Shown here piece by piece: positions 2,929-38,640 of a stretch of DNA of 38,640 bases. The stretch's first letter is position 1. The number at the start of each line of letters is the position of its first letter. Under the pieces are notes generated by a model. It was not told where the DNA came from, ran no database searches, and worked only from the letters and a program-made list of their open reading frames with translations. This DNA is from Candidatus Omnitrophota bacterium. Its GTDB lineage: Bacteria > Omnitrophota > Gorgyraeia > Gorgyraeales > Gorgyraeaceae. The stretch lies in assembly GCA_018896815.1 (NCBI GenBank), contig JAHILY010000020.1, positions 1 to 38,640 of the forward strand, given 5' to 3'. The translations under genes and the position numbers were made by a program.

Positions 2929-4578
2929 ATGGACAAAGACACACTATATTACCATTTTTCAAATCTCGGGTTGGTCCTGGTCGGGCTTTTGAGCATACAG
3001 TCGATCCTTGGGCCTTTTACATTTCTGATCATTGTCTTTGGCTCGATAATAGGCTTTATTGTGAGCTGGTCTATCAAGGATTCGCGTCCGCAGTACATGG
3101 ATATATTTATCGGAATGCTGTCTCTTGCAGCAGTAGTGATAATTTTAGGAAGATTGTATAATACGGCAATTTCATTTGACAACCTCCTGAAGATACTTTC
3201 AATGGCGCTTGCCTGGCTTACGCTTTTTCAGAGCTTTGGACTGCGCAGCGGAAATAGTTATGCAATGCTGCAGTTCATCTCAGCGTGCCTATTGATTTGT
3301 TCAGTAGGGCTTGCCCTTGAACAGGAGACCTTCTATGTTATTTTACTCGGATTATTTTTATTGATATTTATATTTGCCATGCGCTTGAATCTGGTGTGCG
3401 AGAAAAAAAGAAAAGGCTCGCAGATAATAGGGGACCAGGAAGAGGTCATGAGCCTGTCGAGACAGATCAGGGTGGTTGCCCTGATGTTCTGTTTTGTTTT
3501 TATTGTATCAGCGCTTATATATCCCTTTGTGCCCAGGTTCGGAAATATGTCTGTGAGGTGGATACCGTCCACGCTCCTTGGGCTTCCTGAAAAGGTGCCG
3601 ATACTGAAATTACTTAGCGAGGCAAAGAAGACCATTCAGGATGATAAAAGGATCAAAAAGGAACAGATAGTAGATGATGGAAGCAAAAAAAGAGAGACAG
3701 CTCCAGCGCAATTTGATGAGGCCAAGCTTAAGAAAAAGAAGTCCCAGGAAAAGAAACAAGATGAGAAAGAGAAGCAGGAGAAACAAAATGAACAAACAGA
3801 AAGATTCCGGGCAAAAGAATTTAAGCAAGACCTGGATATATTTAAAATAGAGTCGCTGGAGATAACTTCAGATAAAAACGAGGTTCCGTTAGATAGCAGC
3901 TGCAAGCTAAAGGCAGAGTTGAAGATGAACGATGGTTCTACAATACCTGCAACTCGTCTTGTTGACTGGAAGGCCAGGGGAGACGCAAGAGTTACGATTG
4001 ACAGCTCTGGCAATCTTGCCCCAAAGGAGAAAGGCGAAGTAGAGATTTCTGCCAGTTATCTGGGCGCATTTAGCAATGATTTAAAGATAAGCATAACTGA
4101 ACCGGCTAAGCCAGTAAAGAAAAAGAACTGGCTGTATTATGTATTTCTGACATTATTATGGCTTTTGATGCTGCTATTGCTATACATAGTTATTAGGGTT
4201 TATGTAAAGAGCAGGAGATTGGCTGAATTAAAGGTCAAGAATGCAAGGGAATTTATAAGAGAGATATATGCCTCGCTTTGTAATGCATTTAGATCTTATG
4301 GTTCTCCCAGGCTTAAACATATTGCGCACAGGGAATTTTTTCAGCACATAAAGTCGATTATTTCAGTAAATCCAGATCCAATGTGTCTCATGACAGAGGG
4401 TGTATTAGAGGCCGGATTCTCCAGGCATAAGATTACAGCAGAACATTCTAGTGAGAGCCTGCGGCTGTTCCACGAGGTGAAGAAGGTCGTTTTTGAGAGA
4501 GAAGATGGAAAAAAGTTCTGGAAAAAGCCACTTTTTGGGTTACTGATTCTGGATGTGCTATTGGTGCCGACAAAATAA
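2929..4578 (+). CDS. Multi-pass membrane protein: DUF3488-like N-terminus, Lys/Glu-rich linker, Big_2-like Ig domain, TM helix, DUF4129-like C-terminus. No recognisable transglutaminase core.
   Basis: 549 aa. Hydrophobic helices over about the first 200 aa. KKKKSQEKKQDEKEKQEKQNEQ low-complexity tract. LDSSCKLKAELKMNDGSTIPATRLVDWKARGDARVTIDSSGNLAPKEKGEVEISASYLG looks like a bacterial Ig-like group 2 domain. TM segment WLYYVFLTLLWLLMLLLLYIVI is followed by REFIREIYASLCNAFRSYGSPRLKHIAHREFFQHI. Sits in the third position of a MoxR-DUF58 triad. Confidence 0.6.
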   Translation: MDKDTLYYHFSNLGLVLVGLLSIQSILGPFTFLIIVFGSIIGFIVSWSIKDSRPQYMDIFIGMLSLAAVVIILGRLYNTAISFDNLLKILSMALAWLTLFQSFGLRSGNSYAMLQFISACLLICSVGLALEQETFYVILLGLFLLIFIFAMRLNLVCEKKRKGSQIIGDQEEVMSLSRQIRVVALMFCFVFIVSALIYPFVPRFGNMSVRWIPSTLLGLPEKVPILKLLSEAKKTIQDDKRIKKEQIVDDGSKKRETAPAQFDEAKLKKKKSQEKKQDEKEKQEKQNEQTERFRAKEFKQDLDIFKIESLEITSDKNEVPLDSSCKLKAELKMNDGSTIPATRLVDWKARGDARVTIDSSGNLAPKEKGEVEISASYLGAFSNDLKISITEPAKPVKKKNWLYYVFLTLLWLLMLLLLYIVIRVYVKSRRLAELKVKNAREFIREIYASLCNAFRSYGSPRLKHIAHREFFQHIKSIISVNPDPMCLMTEGVLEAGFSRHKITAEHSSESLRLFHEVKKVVFEREDGKKFWKKPLFGLLILDVLLVPTK

Positions 4579-6059: not shown

Positions 6060-9000
6060 ATGTATCACTCCGATTTCGTACATCTCCACGTTCACACCCA
6101 ATACAGCCTCCTTGACGGCGCAAATCTCATAAAAGATCTCGTAGAGGCTGCCAGGCGCATGAAGATGCCTGCAGTCGCCATAACAGACCACGGCAACATG
6201 TTTGGCGCCATTGAATTTTACCAGGCCTGCATGCAGAACGGCATAAAGCCTATCATAGGAAGCGAAGTATACATGGCGCCTAATAGCCGGCTCGACAAGA
6301 CTATTTACAGGGGCGGCGAGACATCAAATCACCTCATACTGCTTGCGCGTGATGAAACCGGCTACGGGAATTTAATAAAACTTGTTTCCATCGGCTACTT
6401 AGAGGGATTTTATTATAAACCAAGGATAGACAAAGAGGCCCTGGCTAAATATTCAGAAGGCCTTATTGCGCTTTCAAGCTGCCTTAAAGGCGAATTAGCC
6501 AGGCTTGCAATGGATAATAATGAGCAAAAGATCAAAGAACTGGCCCGCCAATACCAGGATATCATGGGAAAAGACAATTTTTATTTTGAGATCCAGGATA
6601 ATCAAATACCAGAGCAGAAAAAGGTCAATCGCGTGCTTGTAAAGCTGGGCAAGGAATTAGGCATCGGCGTAGTGGCAACAAATGACGTGCACTACCTCAC
6701 CAGGGAAAGGGCGCGTTCGCACGAGGCGCTTCTCTGCATCCAGACCCAGGCTACCCTTGATGACCCAAACCGCATGAAGCTCCAGACAGACCAGTTTTAT
6801 TTTAAGTCCCCTGAAGAGATGAAAGAACTTTTTAAAGACGTGCCAGAGGCCATTTCAAATACAATAAAGATAACTGAAAGGTGTAATCTGGAATTAGATT
6901 TTTCAAAGACATTCCTGCCTCACTATGCGCCGCCAAAAGACATGACCCGGGAGGGCTACCTGAGAAAGCTCTGCGAGGAAGGAATAAAAAAGAGGTACAC
7001 TGATGTATCGCCTGAAAAGAAAGAGAGGCTGGAACACGAGCTGAGTGTTATTAATAAATCCGGCTACACGAGTTATTTTCTTATTGCGTGGGATTTCGTG
7101 AGCTATGCAAAAGAGCAGGGTATAGTAGTTGGCCCTGGCAGGGGATCAGCAGCAGGAAGTATAGTCAGCTATTGTCTGGGCATAACAGATATAGACCCGC
7201 TGAGATACAACCTGCTGTTCGAAAGATTTTTAAATCAGGAACGCGTTACCATGCCTGATATAGATATAGATTTCTGTTATGAGCGAAGGGGTGAAGTAAT
7301 AGATTATGTCATAAAAAAATATGGTCAGGACAATGTTGCGCAGATCATAACATTTGGCACCATGGCTGCCAGGGCAGTCATAAGGGATGTGGGAAGGGTA
7401 ATGAACATACCTTATGCTGATGTTGACAGGATCGCAAAGCTCGTCCCTGCTGACCCAAACATGAAACTTGAGCTCGCGCTTGAGCAGGAGCCAGAATTAA
7501 AGAGCCTTTACGATACCGACCCCAGAATAAAGGAGCTCATTGACACATCGAGGCATCTTGAGGGCCTGACGCGCCACGCATCTACTCATGCGGCAGGCGT
7601 TGTGATAAGCGAAGACCCGCTAGTAAATCACGTGCCGCTTTTTAAAACTGGTGACGGCCAGGTCTCCACAGGGTATGCAATGGCCTCGCTTGAAAAGATA
7701 GGCCTTCTTAAGATGGACTTTCTGGGCCTGAGGACATTGACTGTTATCCAGGAATCACTGAAGATAATCAATAAGGTCAATAACATCAGCCTCAAGATGG
7801 AAGACCTTTCTGCCGACGACAAAAAGACATTTAAGCTCTTTAGCAGGGCAGAAACAATGGGCATATTTCAGCTGGAATCATCAGGCATGAGAGACCTCCT
7901 GAAGAAATTAAAGCCTGAAAAATTTGAAGACATCGTAGCGCTCCTTGCTTTGTATAGACCTGGACCGATCGGCAGCGGCATGCTGGACGACTTTATGAAG
8001 AGGAAGCACAAGGAAATAGAGGTCAGGTATGACCACCGTCTGCTCGAGCCGATTCTTAAGGAGACTTATGGGATCATAGTCTACCAGGAACAGGTCATGA
8101 TGATCGTCTCAAGCCTTGCCGGGTTCTCACTGGCGCAGGCAGATATTTTACGCCGCGCAATCGGCAAAAAGACGCCGGAGATCATGGACCAGCAGAGAAA
8201 GGCTTTTATAGATGGAGCAATTAAGAATAACATCGATAAGCGCATTGCAGAAAAGATCTTTAGTCTAATCGAGCACTTTGCGGGGTATGGTTTTAACAAA
8301 AGCCACTCTGCCGCATACGCGATGATCTCCTACAGGACCGCATACCTAAAGGCAAATTATCCGGTTGAATTCATGACTGCGCTTCTAACAAGCGAAAAAG
8401 ATAACACAGACAAGATAGTCGAATATATCGACGAGGCAGAGCTCATGGGCCTTAAGATACTGCCCCCTGATGTAAATGAGAGCTTTGCAAACTTTACAAT
8501 GGTCGGCAGGGATTCTATCAGGTTCGGGCTTGGCGCAGTAAAGAACGTTGGTCAGACAGCAATAGATTCTATTATAGAAGCAAGAAAGTCAAAAGGGCCA
8601 TTTAAGACGCTTTATGAATTTTGCGAACGCACGGATTCGAGGCTCGTAAATAAAAAGGTGATAGAGAGTCTTATAAAATGCGGCGCATTTGACAGCCTGA
8701 ATCTAAAGAGGTCGCAGATGATCGCAATGCTTCAGAGGGCGATGGATACGGCAAATACAATACAAAAAGAACGCTCCATTGGCCAGATGCTTCTTTTTAG
8801 TGATCAGGCAGATGTCGTAAATAATGACGTGCCTGATATTAAAGAGTGGCCGGAAGGCCAGCTCCTGCATTTTGAAAAAGAGATGCTGGGTTTTTATATT
8901 ACCGGCCACCCGCTTGCCAGGTATGAAAAGATCCTGCAGGAATATTCAACTGCTGATTCATCAGGGCTTAAGGAGCTTGGCGATGGGGCAAAGATAAGGT

Positions 9001-9976: not shown

Positions 9977-11227
9977 ATGTTAAAAGCACTCCGCGGTACA
10001 AAAGATATTCTTCCTGACGAAGCTCGATTATGGCAGTACATTGAAGCTTCTAGCAGGTATATATTTTCTATATATGGGTATAAAGAGATACGCACGCCCG
10101 TGATCGAAGAGGCGTCCTTGTTTATCAGGAGCATTGGTAATGCTACTGACATAGTGCAGAAAGAGATGTATGTATTCACAGACAGAGGAGGCCGCCAAAT
10201 TGCGCTAAGGCCAGAGGCAACTGCGTCTGTGGTCCGCTCATACATAGAAAATTCCATAGGGAACAAGGAAGGGCTTTCAAAGTTATTCTACATCGGCCCT
10301 ATGTTCAGGAGCGAGCGGCCGCAGAAGGGCAGACAGCGCCAATTTCATCAGTTAGGCGTAGAGGCAATTGGTTCAGATGCTCCATTGCTTGATGCTGAGA
10401 TCATTCTACTGGCCGGTGATTTGTTAAAGAAATTAAACATCCATAATTTTAAGATAAAGATAAACAGCCTTGGCTGCAAAAAAGACAAAGAAAAGATACT
10501 GGAAGATCACAGAAAAGCCATAAAGCCGCACTTAAAGTCACTGTGTGATGAGTGTAACGAGCGCTACGAAAAGAATGTGCTCAGGGTATTTGATTGCAAA
10601 AATCCTGAATGCCAGAAGATTGTCAGTAAGATTGATGCTGCCAATAGCTTGTGTAAGGATTGCGAAGGCCATTTTAAGAGCGTAAAGAGCGCATTGGACG
10701 AACTTAAGGTTGCCTATGAGGTTGATCCCAGGATAGTAAGAGGCCTTGATTATTACACAAAGACAGTGTTTGAAATAGTTCAGGAAGACCTGGGCGCAAA
10801 GGATGCTATATGCGCTGGCGGCAGATACAATAACCTGATTCAGGACATGGGCGGCAAGTCCACGCCTGCTACAGGTTTTGCATTTGGGATCGAGAGGTTG
10901 ATCCTGGCCATTAAGGATTCAGATGTTAAATCAGGGCCTTCGCTGGATGCATTTATAGCTATTGTGGACAAGGATAAATTTAAACAGGGCTTTGCGCTTC
11001 TTTCATCTTTGCGCAAAAAAGGCATTGCTTGTGACATTGACTATGAAGACAAATCTCTGAAGGCGCAGATGAGAAAGGCAGAAAAGCTTGGCGCGCGGTT
11101 CGTTATTATCTTTGGCGGAGACGAGTTTAAGAAGGGCAAGGTTGCGCTGAGGGATATGATGAAGAGAGAACAGAGGGAAGTAGAATTAGAGGATATTACT
11201 AAAGAGATTTGCGATTACACCGCGTAG
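9977..11227 (+). CDS. hisS: Histidyl-tRNA synthetase
   Basis: Start moved to the ATG at 9977 (MLKALRGTKDILPDE matches the usual HisRS N-terminus). FRSERPQKGRQRQFHQLGVE is motif 2. GGRYNNL. C-terminal anticodon-binding domain. Confidence 0.9.
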   Translation: MLKALRGTKDILPDEARLWQYIEASSRYIFSIYGYKEIRTPVIEEASLFIRSIGNATDIVQKEMYVFTDRGGRQIALRPEATASVVRSYIENSIGNKEGLSKLFYIGPMFRSERPQKGRQRQFHQLGVEAIGSDAPLLDAEIILLAGDLLKKLNIHNFKIKINSLGCKKDKEKILEDHRKAIKPHLKSLCDECNERYEKNVLRVFDCKNPECQKIVSKIDAANSLCKDCEGHFKSVKSALDELKVAYEVDPRIVRGLDYYTKTVFEIVQEDLGAKDAICAGGRYNNLIQDMGGKSTPATGFAFGIERLILAIKDSDVKSGPSLDAFIAIVDKDKFKQGFALLSSLRKKGIACDIDYEDKSLKAQMRKAEKLGARFVIIFGGDEFKKGKVALRDMMKREQREVELEDITKEICDYTA

Positions 11228-11255
11228 GTGCGCACCGCGCACCTACGCGGTGTAA
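11215..11255. repeat. CACCGCGTAGGTG-family palindrome, copy 1 (overlaps the hisS stop)
   Basis: Perfect 19-bp arms TTACACCGCGTAGGTGCGC / GCGCACCTACGCGGTGTAA with a 3-nt loop. The hisS TAG (11225-11227) lies in the 5' arm. Confidence 0.7.
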
Positions 11256-25286: not shown

Positions 25287-25363
25287 GTCCCAGTAGCTCA
25301 GTTGGATAGAGCGTAGGTTTCCTAAACCTAAGGTCGGAGGTTCGAGCCCTCCTTGGGACGCCA
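25287..25363 (+). tRNA. tRNA-Arg (anticodon CCU), CCA encoded
   Basis: Manual cloverleaf. Acceptor GTCCCAG/TTGGGAC, D arm GCTC-AGTTGGATA-GAGC, anticodon arm TAGGT-TTCCTAA-ACCTA, variable loop AGGTC, T arm GGAGG-TTCGAGC-CCTCC, discriminator G, then CCA. Confidence 0.9.
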
Positions 25364-26479: not shown

Positions 26480-26827
26480 ATGTACAAAGTAGAATTTTAC
26501 GAAGATAGAAAAAAAGAATGTCCTGTAATTGAATTCTTGGAGGACATTCAACCGAAGATCGCGGCAAAGGTTGCAAAGTGGATTGAGAAACTTGAACAGG
26601 AAGGGCCAAATTTACCTCGGCCTTATGCGGATATAGTGCGAGGTAAAATTAGAGAGCTTAGAGTGGGTTTTGGTTCGAATGAATATCGATTTTTATATTT
26701 TTTCTTTGGGAAGACGATTGTTATTACTCATGGTTTTTTAAAAAAGACGCAGAAAGTTCCTGAAGGTGAGATTAAAAGAGCAGGCCGTTATATGAAAGAT
26801 TTTTTACAAAGAAACAAAGGGGGTTGA
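26480..26827 (+). CDS. Type II toxin, RelE/HigB superfamily (Gp49/DUF891-like)
   Basis: 115 aa. VEFYEDRKKECPVIEFLEDIQPKIAAKVAKWIEKLEQEGPNLPRPYADIVRGKIRELRV...RFLYFFFGKTIVITHGFLKKTQKVP is the typical Gp49-like pattern. The toxin-first order fits HigBA. Confidence 0.8.
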   Translation: MYKVEFYEDRKKECPVIEFLEDIQPKIAAKVAKWIEKLEQEGPNLPRPYADIVRGKIRELRVGFGSNEYRFLYFFFGKTIVITHGFLKKTQKVPEGEIKRAGRYMKDFLQRNKGG

Positions 26828-26834
26828 TGTAATT

Positions 26835-27119
26835 ATGAAAGGGACAGTAAAGTTTAGGGATTATTTAAAGAAGAAATTAGAAGATCCGGAGTTCAAAAAG
26901 GCATTTGATGAAGAAGAGATTTATGCTTCTTTGGCTATTCAGATAGCTAAGATTAGACAAGAGAAAAATTTGACTCAAGAAGACTTAGCTAAAGAATTGC
27001 ACACTACTCAACAGACAGTATCACGTCTGGAGGATATTCATAATACAAGTTATTCTTTACGAACATTGATTAAGCTAGCGAGGGCATTGGATAAGAAGTT
27101 AGAAGTACAGTTAGTTTAA
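26835..27119 (+). CDS. XRE-family HTH antitoxin (HigA-like)
   Basis: 94 aa. The HTH is NLTQEDLAKELHTTQQTVSRLED. Starts 8 nt after the toxin stop. Confidence 0.8.
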   Translation: MKGTVKFRDYLKKKLEDPEFKKAFDEEEIYASLAIQIAKIRQEKNLTQEDLAKELHTTQQTVSRLEDIHNTSYSLRTLIKLARALDKKLEVQLV

Positions 27120-27440: not shown

Positions 27441-28898
27441 ATGAAGCGATTAATGATATTATGCGTTATCATGACAGCAGTCGCTCTAATCGCAGGACCT
27501 GCGTTCGCAGAAGTACAGAACGTAAAGGTATCAGGCGACGTGAACGCTGGTGGCGTGTATCGCAATAGCTACAACCTGTATCCTGCTTCAAGGAATGCCT
27601 TAACTACCAGCGGTGAAGAAGGCCAGGACAGTGATAACAACAACTTTCTTTACACACAGGCAAGGGTCAGGATAGATGCTGATCTTACTGACAATGTAAT
27701 GGCAACTATTCGGTTGTTATCAGAGTATGACTGGTGTACAGAGAGTAATACAGCTGGTGATGGTGACAATTTGGATATTGATCTTGCCAATGTTACGTTA
27801 AAGGAAGTATTTTACGCTCCTTTGACAGTGATCGTAGGTAGGCAGGAACTAAGGTATGGAACTGCTTTTATCATTGGCGATCCAGACACCAATGGAACTT
27901 CAGCAGATTCTAATTTTACAGCAGCTGATCTGAGCTTGCGCAAATCCTTTGACGCTGTAAGGGCAATATTAGACTATAACCCTTTAACAGTAGAAGGTAT
28001 CTTTGCCAAGATAGATGAGCAGACTGGAGCAGCTACTCTGCCAAACACAAACGAAAATGATGATGAAGATCTTTTTGGCGTAAACGTGGCTTATGATCTC
28101 AGTGACAACAATGCAGAGGCAGAGGCATACTGGTTCTTAAACAGAGATCAGAACCAAGACGCAGCTACTGCTTCTACATCTCACAATACACCTGGTCATG
28201 ACATCCACACCTTTGGCTTAAGAGGCAGTATCGAGCCAATGGAGAACTTGAATCTATTAGGTGAATTTGCATTGCAGCGCGGTGATTTTGAAACTGCTTC
28301 ACAGGATTCAGTAACCGTAAAGAGAAAACAGGAATCATTAGCATACCAGGTAGCTGGTGATTTCACATTCGCAGATATAGAATGGATGCCAGTTATTAGA
28401 GCTGGTTGGACACACTATTCAGGAGAAGGCTTTGCTGATGACGGCGACTATAATGCATGGATTCCTCTATACGAGGACCAGACTCATGGCGTAGTTGCAA
28501 ACTATATCCTGAGCGGTGTCAATGGCGGTCAGAATAGTAATGCTGACATATTAAACATTGGCGCAAGCGCTGATGTAATGGAAGACTTGTCTGTCAGTAT
28601 TGATTATTACAACTTCTTGCTAGATGAGAAGCTGGTACAGGCAGCCAATACAGCTCTGGTGACTACACGTGGTTATAATTATGTCAATCTTAGCGAGGCC
28701 TCTATCTACGCGAATGATAGCGACGAGCTCGGTTATGAAATAGACATTGCATTAAACTATGACTATACCGAGGATGTAAAGATGGGGCTTTCAGCTGGTT
28801 GGTTCAAGCCAGGTAAAGCATTAGAGGGCGAAGTTTCTACCGAAAGAAATGACCAAACAGCTCTTCAGGTGTTAGCAACATTGGACGTGGCCTTCTAA
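27441..28898 (+). CDS. Outer-membrane beta-barrel protein / porin (alginate-export-like), very acidic
   Basis: 485 aa. Signal peptide MKRLMILCVIMTAVALIAGPAFA-EVQ. VGRQELRYGTAFIIGD resembles the alginate-export family motif. Alternating amphipathic strands. C-terminal ...LATLDVAF ends in Phe, as OMP barrels do. Confidence 0.7.
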   Translation: MKRLMILCVIMTAVALIAGPAFAEVQNVKVSGDVNAGGVYRNSYNLYPASRNALTTSGEEGQDSDNNNFLYTQARVRIDADLTDNVMATIRLLSEYDWCTESNTAGDGDNLDIDLANVTLKEVFYAPLTVIVGRQELRYGTAFIIGDPDTNGTSADSNFTAADLSLRKSFDAVRAILDYNPLTVEGIFAKIDEQTGAATLPNTNENDDEDLFGVNVAYDLSDNNAEAEAYWFLNRDQNQDAATASTSHNTPGHDIHTFGLRGSIEPMENLNLLGEFALQRGDFETASQDSVTVKRKQESLAYQVAGDFTFADIEWMPVIRAGWTHYSGEGFADDGDYNAWIPLYEDQTHGVVANYILSGVNGGQNSNADILNIGASADVMEDLSVSIDYYNFLLDEKLVQAANTALVTTRGYNYVNLSEASIYANDSDELGYEIDIALNYDYTEDVKMGLSAGWFKPGKALEGEVSTERNDQTALQVLATLDVAF

Positions 28899-28996: not shown

Positions 28997-29034
28997 GATC
29001 CCCTGGGGGAGTAATCCTCCAGGGGATTTTTTTT
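28997..29034 (+). terminator. Intrinsic terminator downstream of the porin gene
   Basis: GATCCCCTGG (28997-29006) pairs with CCAGGGGAT (29019-29027), followed by T8. Confidence 0.75.
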
Positions 29035-29150
29035 GGTGGGGCTGTCTCTGCTCAGCCCACTGGCTCTCGGGGACGCAAAAGTAGATATTAAGATGATAGC
29101 AGTAATTTTTCTTTCTTTGTTGGTAATGTGAATATATCGATAAACATGCT

Positions 29151-29176
29151 GTCATTCCCGCGGAAGCGGGAATCTA
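29151..29176 (-). repeat. TAGATTCCCGCTTYCGCGGGAATGAC hairpin repeat, left copy (reverse orientation)
   Basis: GTCATTCCCGCGGAAGCGGGAATCTA. Its reverse complement differs from 29516-29541 at one base. Ends 7 nt before the GIY-YIG ATG. Confidence 0.75.
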
Positions 29177-29183
29177 ACTTGTT

Positions 29184-29471
29184 ATGAAACAATATTATGT
29201 ATATATTTTAGCAAGTAAGAAAAACGGAGTTTTATACATAGGCGTAACGAGTGATTTAGTAAAAAGAGTATATGAGCACAAAAACAATCTTGTCGAAGGA
29301 TTTACAAAGAAGTATCATGTTCATAAACTTGTATATTACGAGGAAAACAACGATGTATATGCTGCAATAACAAGAGAAAAACAGATAAAGAAATGGAATA
29401 GAGCATGGAAGGTGCAATTGATAGAAAAAAATAACTCTGATTGGGGAGATTTATACTATAATTTACTATAG
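29184..29471 (+). CDS. Small stand-alone GIY-YIG nuclease-superfamily protein (UPF0213/COG2827-like)
   Basis: 95 aa. YYVYILASKKNGVLYIGVTSDLVKRVYEHKNN...GFTKKYHVHKLVYYEE...AITREKQIKKWNRAWK matches the GIY...YIG...R...E...N pattern. Confidence 0.85.
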   Translation: MKQYYVYILASKKNGVLYIGVTSDLVKRVYEHKNNLVEGFTKKYHVHKLVYYEENNDVYAAITREKQIKKWNRAWKVQLIEKNNSDWGDLYYNLL

Positions 29472-29541
29472 ATTCCCTTCGCGGGAATGACAAGAGGAAT
29501 GCGGGAATGACAATATAGATTCCCGCTTTCGCGGGAATGAC
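29469..29541 (+). repeat. 2.5 tandem copies of the same hairpin repeat, starting on the GIY-YIG stop codon
   Basis: TAGATTCCCTTCGCGGGAATGAC (29469-29491), partial GAGGAATGCGGGAATGAC (29494-29511), and TAGATTCCCGCTTTCGCGGGAATGAC (29516-29541). Confidence 0.75.
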
Positions 29542-29612
29542 CAGTGGGCTGAGCAGAAGACAGCGTGTGTTTTCTATTGATTTTATATACGAGATAGGGT
29601 AAGATATAACTC

Positions 29613-30905
29613 ATGAGAAAACTATTTGTTTTAGACACGAATGTCTTATTACACAATCCCGATGCGATGAAGGTGTTTGTAGACAATGAAGTTGTCCTGC
29701 CCATTGATGTGATCGAGGAGCTTGATATATTCAAAAAGGACAATGACGAAAAAGGCAGGAATGCCCGCGCAGCTATAAGGACGCTGGATGAATTAAGGGC
29801 GCGCGGTAGATTAGGCAAAGGCGTGCCGCTCGAAAGCGGCGGCACATTGCGCATTGTAATGCACGCAGATATAAAAGGGCTCCTGGATCTTTCGCCAGAG
29901 GTAAGGGATAATAAGATCCTGATGGTTGCCTATGACCTCCAGCAAAAGGGCAACAAGGTAATATTTGTATCAAAGGACATCAATGCAAGGGTCAAGGCAG
30001 ACGCCCTTGGCATAAAGGCAGTTGACTTTGAAAAGCAGAAGGTTGACATTGACCGGCTCTACAGTGGGTGGAAAGAATTACCGGTCAAGGGCAGTGATAT
30101 AGATATTTTTTATAAAAAGAAGTTTCTTGCCGTAAAGATAGATAAGATCTTCCCGAATCAGTATTTTTTTCTTAAGGACGATGCTGATGAAAAACACACG
30201 GCCCTTGCAAGGTTTTCTTCCAGGCAAAATGGCATGGTGCCATTGAGGTCTGATGTGAGTGATGTATGGGGCGTGAAGCCCAGGAACAAAGAGCAGGCAA
30301 TTGCCCTTGATCTTTTAATGGATGACAGTGTAAAGCTGGTGAGCCTGGTCGGAAAGGCAGGCACTGGAAAGACACTTCTGGCATTGGCAGCTGGATTAAA
30401 AAAGACCATTGATGAACATGCCTATAAGAGGATGCTTGTCTCAAGGCCAATAATCCCCATGGGCAGGGACATTGGCTATCTGCCAGGCACTAAAGAAGAA
30501 AAGCTCCTCAACTGGATGCAGCCTATCTATGACAATCTCGAATACATCCTTACCATAAGAAAGAGAAAAGAACACATAGAAGACCTGATTGATTCTGACC
30601 TGGTGCAGTTAGAAGCGCTTACCTATATGAGAGGCCGCAGCATACCAAATCAGTTTATAGTGATTGATGAAGCGCAGAACCTTACTCCGCACGAGATAAA
30701 GACTGTTGTGAGCCGCGCCGGCAATCATACGAAGATGGTATTGACAGGCGACCCTTACCAGATCGACAGTCCCTACCTTGATTCTTCTTCCAATGGCCTT
30801 AGTTATGCAGTAGAGAAGATGAAAGGCCAAGAGATGTTCGGTCATATCCTGCTTACGAGGAACGAGAGATCGAATCTCGCGAGCCTTGCCGCTGAACTCC
30901 TGTGA
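29613..30905 (+). CDS. PIN-domain / PhoH-like ATPase fusion (PhoH2/YlaK type)
   Basis: 430 aa. N-terminal PIN (FVLDTNVLLHNPDA, DNKIL, VSKDINARVKA). PhoH core with Walker A GKAGTGKTLLALAAG and Walker B FIVIDEAQNLTPHE. Confidence 0.85.
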   Translation: MRKLFVLDTNVLLHNPDAMKVFVDNEVVLPIDVIEELDIFKKDNDEKGRNARAAIRTLDELRARGRLGKGVPLESGGTLRIVMHADIKGLLDLSPEVRDNKILMVAYDLQQKGNKVIFVSKDINARVKADALGIKAVDFEKQKVDIDRLYSGWKELPVKGSDIDIFYKKKFLAVKIDKIFPNQYFFLKDDADEKHTALARFSSRQNGMVPLRSDVSDVWGVKPRNKEQAIALDLLMDDSVKLVSLVGKAGTGKTLLALAAGLKKTIDEHAYKRMLVSRPIIPMGRDIGYLPGTKEEKLLNWMQPIYDNLEYILTIRKRKEHIEDLIDSDLVQLEALTYMRGRSIPNQFIVIDEAQNLTPHEIKTVVSRAGNHTKMVLTGDPYQIDSPYLDSSSNGLSYAVEKMKGQEMFGHILLTRNERSNLASLAAELL

Positions 30906-30962
30906 TATTTGAGTATCCTGGTTGCAAGAGCGTAAAGTTAATCGAAAAAATTGCAATCGGTA

Positions 30963-30997
30963 CACCGCGTAGGTGCACGGTGCGCACCTACGCGGTG
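30963..30997. repeat. CACCGCGTAGGTG-family palindrome, copy 2
   Basis: CACCGCGTAGGTGC (30963-30976) / GCACCTACGCGGTG (30984-30997). Confidence 0.7.
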
Positions 30998-31030
30998 GGT
31001 AGTGTCTATAACATACAGTCGACGAGTTTT

Positions 31031-31056
31031 TAGATTCCCACTTTCGTGGGAATGAC
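31031..31056 (+). repeat. Solo copy of the GIY-YIG-associated hairpin repeat
   Basis: TAGATTCCCACTTTCGTGGGAATGAC. Relative to 29516-29541 it carries G>A in the 5' arm and C>T in the 3' arm, which keeps the stem paired. Confidence 0.75.
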
Positions 31057-31103
31057 AGCACCCCCTGATAGCTCACCGATTATAAAAAAATTGAAAAATT
31101 CTA

Positions 31104-31132
31104 TTGACACGATTCTTTAAATACTTTATAAT
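31104..31132 (+). promoter_or_regulatory. Consensus sigma70 promoter of the PKD-protein gene
   Basis: TTGACA (31104-31109), 17-nt spacer, TATAAT (31127-31132). GGGGAGG SD at 31172-31178. Confidence 0.6.
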
Positions 31133-31185
31133 ACTTATTAAATATCGATAAAAATCGTATAAAACCGAACAAGGGGAGGTGCTAT

Positions 31186-35951: not shown

Positions 35952-35985
35952 CACCGCGTAGGCGTATTGATACACCTACGCGGTG
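35952..35985. repeat. CACCGCGTAGGTG-family palindrome, copy 3
   Basis: CACCGCGTAGG (35952-35962) / CCTACGCGGTG (35975-35985). Confidence 0.65.
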
Positions 35986-38214: not shown

Positions 38215-38640
38215 ATGAACATGCTTAAATTAAGAAGTAGGCATGGTTTTACGCTCGTAGAGATCATGATAGTAGTCGCAATCATATCTTTATTAGCAGC
38301 AATCGCAATACCGAACTTACTGCGGGCACGCCACAATGCTAACGAAGCAGCAGCTATCGCAGCTCTGAGGACCATCTCCACAGCTTGTGAGAGCTTTCGT
38401 TCAGCACAGACACCAACAGCATATCCTGCAAGCCTGGCAGCGCTAAGTACAGCAGTACCTCCATACATAGATGCTGCTCTAGCAGGCGCCACTGCAGCAG
38501 GGACCGCAAGACAGGGTTATTTTCATACCTATGTCATGGTAAACAATAACCAGTTTACCTGCACATCTAGCCCTGCAGCGCCAGGCACAACAGGCACTCG
38601 TATCTTTTTCGTGAACGAGACTGGTGTGATAAGGCTGAAC
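38215..38640 (+). CDS. Prepilin-type N-terminal cleavage/methylation-domain protein (type IV pilin / T2SS pseudopilin-like), 3' end outside the window
   Basis: Not in the supplied ORF track because there is no stop in the window. My translation is MNMLKLRSRHGFTLVEIMIVVAIISLLAAIAIPNLLRARHNANEAAAIAALRTISTACESFRS.... G-FTLVE-I is the class III signal motif. AAAGGAGG SD at 38206-38213. The frame is open to base 38640. The start could be 38221. Confidence 0.8.
   Translation, partial: MNMLKLRSRHGFTLVEIMIVVAIISLLAAIAIPNLLRARHNANEAAAIAALRTISTACESFRSAQTPTAYPASLAALSTAVPPYIDAALAGATAAGTARQGYFHTYVMVNNNQFTCTSSPAAPGTTGTRIFFVNETGVIRLN

Follow-up and report, generated by a model that had tools for sequence, protein, structure and literature searches.

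The 38,640-nucleotide stretch of Candidatus Omnitrophota DNA analyzed here (the window) carries a small gene, ssn, that very probably encodes a site-specific single-stranded DNA (ssDNA) GIY-YIG endonuclease of the SsnA family, with the flanking hairpins as its cognate NTS/SRM recognition elements. The locus is an ordinary, fresh example of the Ssn nuclease/hairpin-repeat system published in 2025 (Chenal et al. 2025, Nat Commun 16:2388; PMC11893778). The original prediction had proposed a nuclease paired with a cognate hairpin in a RAYT-like arrangement, and such a pairing has been established experimentally for homologues (PMC11893778). Its accompanying remark that no relationship of this kind was established is out of date, since Chenal et al. 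describe one and draw the REP/RAYT comparison themselves. The discovery value is thus small: the pairing of gene and hairpin, the cleavage restricted to ssDNA, and the analogy with REP/RAYT all formed part of the 2025 publication. The locus retains value as an annotation anchor and as a source of comparative data on cassette mobility, a question left by Chenal et al.

SsnA is a 94-residue, single-domain GIY-YIG protein that acts as a site-specific ssDNA endonuclease; its gene is NMV_0044/NMB0047, and the protein belongs to CDD cd10448 (GIY-YIG_unchar_3) (PMC11893778). Half of the Neisseria dRS3 repeats (ATTCCC-N8-GGGAAT) are oriented 28-nt NTS sites with the consensus CGTCATTCCCGCGMAVGCGGGAATCYRG, and NTS together with degenerate relatives (SRM) flank the ssnA gene family across bacteria, with at least one SRM at 71% of homologue loci and SRMs on both flanks at 42% (PMC11893778). 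The purified enzyme binds the hairpin as ssDNA only, cleaves a few nucleotides 5' of it, and requires Y6, Y17, and E64; it is inactive on double-stranded DNA (dsDNA), RNA, and the reverse strand, and the RNA hairpin is not bound (PMC11893778). Enzymes from N. meningitidis, N. elongata, N. wadsworthii, and Wolbachia have been characterized, and homologue specificities differ, the Wolbachia site being cleaved by its own enzyme only (PMC11893778). In N. meningitidis, SsnA restricts recombination when the transforming ssDNA contains NTS, and deletion of ssnA raises transformation with NTS-bearing DNA ≈5-fold (PMC11893778). The authors' discussion likens NTS-ssnA-NTS to an insertion sequence, compares it with IS200/IS605, REP, RAYT, and BIME elements, and presents mobility as a hypothesis (PMC11893778). 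Beyond that paper, a literature search for SsnA with GIY-YIG or cd10448 returned only unrelated work on the SLX4-nuclease complex that mentions SsnA in passing.

Features of the ssn locus, in positions of the window. Strands of hairpins marked "NTS sense" follow the published motif.
Feature	Position	Strand	Basis or remark
Left arm of local 22-bp palindrome	29042..29063		Context, outside the Ssn unit
86-nt leader between left palindrome arm and left SRM	29064..29149	+	Conserved in L001–L008; absent from L092 and L115
Left SRM/NTS hairpin, TGTCATTCCCGCGGAAGCGGGAATCTAA	29150..29177	+ (NTS sense)	25/28 to NTS consensus; 6–7 nt upstream of ATG
ssn gene, 95-residue single-domain GIY-YIG nuclease of the SsnA family	29184..29471	+	Pfam match and similarity to SsnA
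Degenerate right SRM copy, TAGATTCCCTTCGCGGGAATGAC, 3 nt deleted in one arm	29469..29491	-	Its TAG is the ssn stop codon
20-nt half-site unit, AAGAGGAATGCGGGAATGAC, in tandem array	29492..29511	-	Half-motif match
Right full SRM/NTS hairpin	29515..29542	- (NTS sense)	26/28 to NTS consensus
Right arm of local palindrome	29541..29563		Abuts outer end of right SRM
Insert of ≈128 nt: palindrome of a second kind (30963–30997) plus solo SRM	30945..31096		12-nt direct repeats
Solo SRM copy, compensated stem CCCAC/GTGGG	31030..31057	- (NTS sense)	24/28 to NTS consensus; hairpin z = -5.1

The ssn product matches the Pfam GIY-YIG family (PF01541, E = 9.6e-17) over residues 3 to 76 and has no second domain. 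Compared with the 94-residue SsnA ORF of N. gonorrhoeae, it is 60% identical over 93 residues with 84% positives (E = 1e-44), below the E < 1e-10 by which Chenal et al. define homology to SsnA. We took this gonococcal ORF (MQPAVYILASQRNGTLYIGV...; L174:2998-3282) as SsnA from its length, its Y6/Y17/E64 residues, and its location within a cluster of 16 NTS copies in 1.6 kb, and not from the record annotation; it derives from two N. gonorrhoeae chromosomes that PLSDB lists among its plasmids. Residues Y7, Y18, and E65 of the window protein align with the catalytic Y6, Y17, and E64 and are invariant in 30 homologues. Database relatives of the window protein number more than 8000 at 70 to 98% identity and span many phyla. 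Searches of NCBIfam, PADLOC, and PHROGs with the window protein gave no specific family model, and a sequence search of the PDB returned spurious WD40-repeat matches only and no Ssn structure. The fold is GIY-YIG, and a HUH or Y1 transposase domain is absent. The name Ssn can here be given to the gene product, annotated as a "GIY-YIG nuclease family protein," and the name SRM to the hairpins.

The "UPF0213-type" label originally attached to the protein had to be dropped. UPF0213/YhbQ proteins are likewise stand-alone GIY-YIG proteins of ≈100 residues, but the window protein is only 21% identical to E. coli YhbQ (29 bits, pairwise E = 1e-6), as against its 60% identity to SsnA.

We also considered that the gene might be a free-standing homing endonuclease of the I-TevI/Seg type, which would cut dsDNA at a gene-free target and spread by double-strand-break repair. 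Patchy occurrence among relatives would fit such an enzyme, as would weak matches to PHROG 5123 (E = 5e-5) and TIGR01453 (20 bits), but the latter lies under a cut-off of 56 and covers residues 6 to 41 only. With 95 residues, the protein comprises the catalytic core without a DNA-binding domain, and the characterized homologues to which it is related have no dsDNA activity (PMC11893778). Given also the degree of identity to SsnA, we consider a homing endonuclease extremely unlikely.

Both the ORF and the oppositely oriented 26-nt hairpins between which it had been placed were confirmed. Full copies of the 26-mer lie at 29151-29176 (-), 29516-29541 (+), and 31031-31056 (+, two mismatches), and none are expected in shuffled sequence. 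The published NTS motif (GTCATTCCC...GGGAATC) has the opposite sense to the 26-mer originally written as "forward," being its reverse complement. Read in the NTS sense, the left copy is on the plus strand and the right and solo copies are on the minus strand, so that their GTCAT ends point away from ssn. The left hairpin has an 8-bp stem (-9 kcal/mol, z = -4.2) and is conserved in same-species relatives (L001–L008) that share the porin/PhoH order and the same hairpin-ssn arrangement; its 26-mer ends 7 nt before the ATG, a spacing that we confirmed. The right full hairpin likewise has an 8-bp stem; relative to the left copy it is inverted, with 35-nt arms that are 89% complementary. The window hairpins retain the GTC and the 3' C, both of which are critical (PMC11893778).

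The solo copy, which the original prediction had placed 1.5 kb away with a paired CCCAC/GTGGG change, likewise stood: its two mismatches to the 26-mer constitute one compensated pair, and it folds into an 8-bp hairpin. This compensated variant is also a frequent one in the NTS copies of the gonococcus. All three full copies counted in the 38.6-kb window fall within 1.9 kb of ssn, so that a genome-wide repeat family in this organism would be a hypothesis.

None of the four hairpin copies in the window matches the published SRM string, HGTCWYN(0-2)YYVSBRHN(0-5)WNVSBRGN(0-2)RNCYNB, exactly. In the three copies compared position by position, the departures amount to one or two positions: the right copy misses the string by one substitution (first base G) and the left copy by two (loop G and final A), and the tails of the window hairpins read CTAA or CTAT as against the CYNB of the string. 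The one stretch of the window that fits the string exactly, at 38590-38622, is unrelated. As a search heuristic, the string yields dozens of matches in the window once mismatches are allowed, and hence we relied on the 28-nt NTS together with a scan for hairpin structures. The hairpin corresponds to no Rfam family.

Downstream of ssn, the 2.5 copies said to start on the stop codon resolve into a shortened copy at 29469, a half-unit running to 29511, and a full copy. In relatives, a full hairpin copy is found 10 nt past the stop codon, so that the overlap seen in the window stems from a small deletion. The half motif GCGGGAATGAC has two further occurrences, at 29481 within the shortened copy and at 29501 within the 20-nt half-unit. 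At the same place, L001–L008 carry two or four half-units, indicating that the copy number of the array is variable. Cleavage of half-sites paired in trans has been reported for split NTS oligonucleotides.

To ask how general this arrangement is, we sampled 83 homologous genes at 80 genome loci, with 61 to 74% protein identity, from Proteobacteria, Nitrospirae, Planctomycetes, Chloroflexi, Cyanobacteria, CPR, Omnitrophota, and one Halobacteria (archaeal) MAG. In 80 of the 83 genes (96%), one side or both have a correctly oriented GTC-stem-loop-stem-C hairpin no more than 150 nt away, and in 56 both sides do. Hairpin density is 7.8 to 8.0 per kb within 150 nt of ssn and 0.15 to 0.24 per kb beyond 500 nt, a ≈40-fold difference. 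Orientation is strongly biased, with 79 (+) and 17 (-) hairpins upstream and 26 (+) and 70 (-) downstream, and the median gaps are ≈20 nt from hairpin to ATG and ≈10 nt from stop codon to hairpin. The left and right hairpins differ from one another within the locus in 33 of 56 cases.

The stems themselves covary. Because circularity was to be avoided, we picked a set of 118 hairpins by their unpaired flanks alone; in this set, 98.5% of cells are paired, six of the eight pairs covary, and double-sided stem changes number 57 as against 5.1 in shuffles (0/500). In a different genome, L009, both flanking hairpins carry the compensated stem ATCCCCGC/GCGGGGAT, and longer hairpins with nested loop inserts are also found there.

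These data bear on the possibility that the hairpins are REP-like or terminator-like RNA elements whose adjacency to a GIY-YIG gene is incidental. The hairpins are stable, GC-rich, and intergenic, a terminator-like score was obtained for one copy on the minus strand, and the window holds another, unrelated family of intergenic palindromes. However, incidental adjacency is difficult to reconcile with hairpins that are ≈40-fold enriched and strictly oriented near ssn genes across phyla, and conservation of the unpaired GTC and 3' C would be needless for a terminator. The hairpin is not followed by a T-run. SsnA, moreover, does not bind the hairpin as RNA, whereas it binds and cleaves it as ssDNA (PMC11893778). 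We therefore judge an RNA role of this sort very unlikely and favor the reading of the hairpins as recognition elements of Ssn.

From the literature on characterized homologues, we infer how the window protein would act. In single-stranded DNA, whether of the locus itself or entering from outside, the GTCATTCCCGC-N4-GCGGGAATC element would fold into a hairpin. The ≈95-residue protein would bind this hairpin on one strand only, in a manner that depends on the stem sequence and on the C that directly follows the stem on its 3' side. With Mg2+ and the Tyr/Tyr/Glu site, the enzyme would then cut ≈3 nt 5' of the motif TGTCATTCCC, whereas dsDNA, RNA, and the complementary strand would be left uncut. 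The predicted cuts fall at ≈29146/29147 (+), ≈29545/29546 (-), and, for the solo copy, ≈31060/31061 (-). Since the left copy has its NTS sense on the plus strand and the right copies have theirs on the minus strand, two of the predicted cuts would lie just outside the gene-hairpin unit, one per strand.

The cassette sits between an Alginate_exp-type porin gene (27441-28898), followed by a strong terminator (28997-29028), and a gene for a PIN-PhoH protein (29613-30905). Around it lies the outer inverted pair of 22/23 nt that had been described as enclosing everything; we find it to be perfect over 17/17 positions and to extend to 22/23 with one indel. The original prediction had offered, as an alternative, that the pair is what is left of a pre-existing palindrome, and comparison with relatives speaks for this reading. 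In L115, whose PhoH is 92% identical, both arms (2772-2789 and 3069-3090) surround a different nested-palindrome insert of ≈280 nt without ssn. In L001–L008, the closest cassette-bearing relatives, the right arm is absent, and a diverged left arm is present in L002–L006. Because the arms occur without ssn in L115 and the cassette occurs without the right arm in L001–L008, we take the pair to be a local hot-spot palindrome that is not part of Ssn. On the same two observations, we rejected the outer pair as the termini of an element. The 86-nt leader accompanies the cassette in relatives; a scan of it for a sigma-70 promoter found none that was convincing.

For the comparison among strains, we used the PIN-PhoH gene as the anchor for 80 loci. 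The porin-PhoH-DPBB-PKD gene order is kept in ≈30 relatives. The DPBB_1 gene present in all relatives is missing from the window. Within these 80 loci, the ssn cassette was found only in the lineage of the window and in L093/L001–L008; L092 and L115 (PhoH 92 to 93% identical) lack it, as do ≈25 relatives at 73 to 85% identity with conserved gene order. The porin-PhoH intervals of relatives display the presence and absence of the cassette that the original prediction had suggested looking for (L001–L008 and L093 versus L092 and L115). The spacer between the two genes holds different palindromes or ≈0.9-kb inserts from strain to strain. A clean empty site was sought in the 80 loci and none was seen: the L092 spacer is minimal and entirely different, and the L115 palindrome is filled otherwise. 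The cassette, consisting of the leader, an SRM, ssn, and the SRM array, was most likely gained in the lineage of the window. Its site, with the porin terminator on one side and the PIN-PhoH promoter on the other, is a hot spot rich in palindromes.

The porin adjacent to this spacer is only 39 to 40% identical in L092 and L115, although their PhoH proteins are 92 to 93% identical. This divergence echoes the NTS clusters of Neisseria, which lie beside variable surface-protein genes.

The solo SRM belongs to an insert of its own, bounded by the 12-nt direct repeats AAAAAATTGCAA (30945-30956) and AAAAAATTGAAA (31085-31096). Loci L161 and L001 have a single copy of the A-rich target and lack the ≈128-nt insert. 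Further copies of the insert as a unit were not found; only its 14-bp palindrome recurs (11218 and 35952), in both cases without an SRM.

These observations lead to the question of whether SRM-ssn-SRM is itself an autonomous element resembling an insertion sequence. Under such a scheme, Ssn would nick the strands outside the terminal hairpins, host replication or repair would copy or move the unit, and solo hairpins and half-site arrays would be its non-autonomous relics. This would extend, and not exclude, our main reading of the locus as an Ssn nuclease with its cognate hairpins. Chenal et al. raised the hypothesis (PMC11893778), and several features are in line with it. Inverted terminal hairpins enclose a single nuclease gene, and the presence of the cassette varies among strains whose PhoH proteins are 92 to 95% identical. 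Four pairs of paralogous cassettes, each within a single genome, aligned beyond their hairpins; in three of them (L083a/b, L041/L064, and L017/L073) the similarity stops 1 to 11 nt past the hairpins, while in the fourth, L077/L080, it continues for 62 nt further, up to another inverted repeat. The occurrence of proteins that are 60 to 75% identical across Neisseria, Omnitrophota-like bacteria, CPR, and an archaeal MAG suggests horizontal transfer. Many homologues lie on short contigs, as repeats do, and the solo copy is inside an insert with direct repeats.

Other features point away from mobility. GIY-YIG enzymes act by hydrolysis without a covalent intermediate and so would not rejoin strands, unlike HUH and DDE transposases. 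Target-site duplications flank none of the cassettes examined, and a clean empty site is missing, with the L092 region wholly different and the L115 palindrome occupied by other DNA. The left junction in the window lies 86 nt beyond the left hairpin, and the left and right hairpins are unlike one another at more than half of the loci that have both (33/56). Plasmid matches are few (34 records), and phage matches are essentially nil. On balance, we regard an autonomous element as possible but rather unlikely. We are similarly tentative about the related proposal that solo hairpins and half-site arrays derive from a self-propagating cassette that has spread to other palindromic intergenic sites, across phyla. 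The earlier suggestion that the nuclease "spreads or maintains" its repeat family stands as a hypothesis. If true, a self-propagating cassette with a purely hydrolytic GIY-YIG ssDNA nuclease would be a kind of mobile element not yet demonstrated. To this question the present locus contributes modest new comparative data: the presence and absence of the cassette in near-identical strains, the sharp boundaries of paralogues, and the variation of the half-site array.

A conventional insertion sequence has terminal inverted repeats, a transposase, and target-site duplications; the window locus has inverted terminal hairpins, no direct repeats flank its cassette, and its enzyme has no known strand-transfer chemistry. 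In REP/BIME elements and their RAYT genes, too, a small nuclease gene lies between inverted hairpin repeats that also occur as solo copies, and the hairpin is recognized in ssDNA with cleavage beside it. The RAYT protein, however, has a Y1 HUH (IS200/IS605-like) fold and chemistry unrelated to those of GIY-YIG, which hydrolyzes DNA with no covalent 5'-phosphotyrosine intermediate and no strand transfer, and the repeat sequence differs. With the dRS3/NIME elements of Neisseria, the window hairpins share an identical palindromic core, ATTCCC-N8-GGGAAT, and a tendency to cluster between genes beside those for surface proteins, here a hypervariable porin. The dRS3 element differs in being defined as an unoriented 20-bp palindrome and is a known integration site of filamentous prophage; neither a prophage nor NIME arrays were seen in the window.

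The closest counterpart is the Ssn/NTS system of Neisseria. The window differs from it in its host, which is an uncultured lineage, in the 3' tail of its hairpins (CTAA/CTAT versus CYRG), and in having three full copies per 38.6-kb window versus hundreds in pathogenic Neisseria. It also has, downstream of the gene, a variable tandem array of half-sites. In both systems, nevertheless, a 94- to 95-residue single-domain GIY-YIG protein with the same catalytic Tyr/Tyr/Glu residues is encoded between inverted copies of a hairpin, with solo copies nearby. The hairpin has the form GTCATTCCCGCG-N3-GCGGGAATC, agrees at 24 to 26 of 28 positions, and has the compensated CCCAC/GTGGG variant in common.

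In the interval between PhoH and the PKD-repeat gene, a 127-aa DPBB_1 gene is present in all syntenic relatives but missing from the window, as seen by comparison of window positions 30906-31185 with the same-species locus L001 (1884-2565) and the PIN-PhoH-anchored locus L161 (581-1223). The window instead carries a short spacer with an insert of ~128 nt, edged by 12-nt direct repeats (AAAAAATTGCAA and AAAAAATTGAAA). This insert comprises the solo SRM and, adjoining it, one copy of a second palindromic repeat, ACACCGCGTAGGTGC-N7-GCACCTACGCGGTGT, which is unrelated to SRM. The palindrome occurs three times in the window, against 0.02 copies expected by chance, and no partner gene was identified at these three sites.

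Repeat content also varies 3' of ssn, where the 20-nt half-site unit AAGAGGnnnGCGGGAATGAC is found in one, two, or four copies among near-identical strains. Orphan half-site arrays were observed for 8 of the 83 homologous genes; Chenal et al. 2025 (PMC11893778), who described Ssn, do not use the word "tandem" in their main text. Running across the hairpin array of the window is a 132-aa minus-strand ORF, containing peptides such as HSRESGN and VIPAKGI; it is almost certainly not a genuine gene. ORFs derived from repeats in this way, together with C-terminal extensions that give relatives of 104-141 aa, probably pollute protein databases. As a separate matter of curation, PLSDB entries NZ_CP119140.1 and NZ_CP119142.1 are 2.17-Mb N. 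gonorrhoeae chromosomes wrongly entered as plasmids.

Features of the window and of the loci compared
Feature	Location	Remark
ACACCGCGTAGGTGC-N7-GCACCTACGCGGTGT palindrome	window 11218-11252	intergenic
ACACCGCGTAGGTGC-N7-GCACCTACGCGGTGT palindrome	window 30963-30997	intergenic
ACACCGCGTAGGTGC-N7-GCACCTACGCGGTGT palindrome	window 35952-35985	intergenic
tRNA gene	window 25287-25360	
Gp49/HigB-like toxin ORF (115 aa), then HTH_3 antitoxin-like ORF (94 aa)	window 26480-27119	shortly 5' of porin
Porin	window 27441-28898	adjoins cassette
Porins compared	L092:106-1407; L115:1368-2705	
Half-site arrays compared	window 29469-29541; L001:407-498; L004:469-520	
132-aa ORF	window 29456-29854 (-)	
SRMs with long loop insertions	L009:5333-5380, 6791-6838; L018, L022, L023, L025, L038	
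Archaeal carrier	L029	Halobacteria archaeon MAG
CPR/Patescibacteria carriers	L018, L022, L028, L030, L035, L037, L038, L042, L048, L054	

Elsewhere, Ssn homologues with flanking SRMs and 65-72% identity occur in CPR/Patescibacteria genomes and in one archaeal MAG, with MAG contamination a possibility; Chenal et al. (PMC11893778) make no mention of archaea in their main text. Some SRMs in other genomes have long insertions in the loop; these inserts are hairpins in their own right, forming nested palindromes. At L009 the neighboring trmE gene is likewise bracketed by inverted SRM copies. The flanking hairpins of L017 and L073 (Dadabacteria MAG) are reversed, with their GTCAT ends toward the gene, a minority arrangement.

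The spacer between porin and PhoH is a hot spot for insertions on the 3' side of the terminator that follows the porin gene: among the PhoH-anchored loci L094-L168, it is either empty or occupied by one unrelated palindrome, by arrays of GGAGTAGCGGAGCGAAGCTCCG-type repeats, or by inserts of ~0.9 kb. The porin itself is hypervariable, with 39-40% identity to its counterparts in L092 and L115, despite PhoH being 92-93% identical in these same strains. This setting resembles that in Neisseria, where NTS clusters adjoin variable surface-protein genes, as the cassette here lies beside a hypervariable porin.
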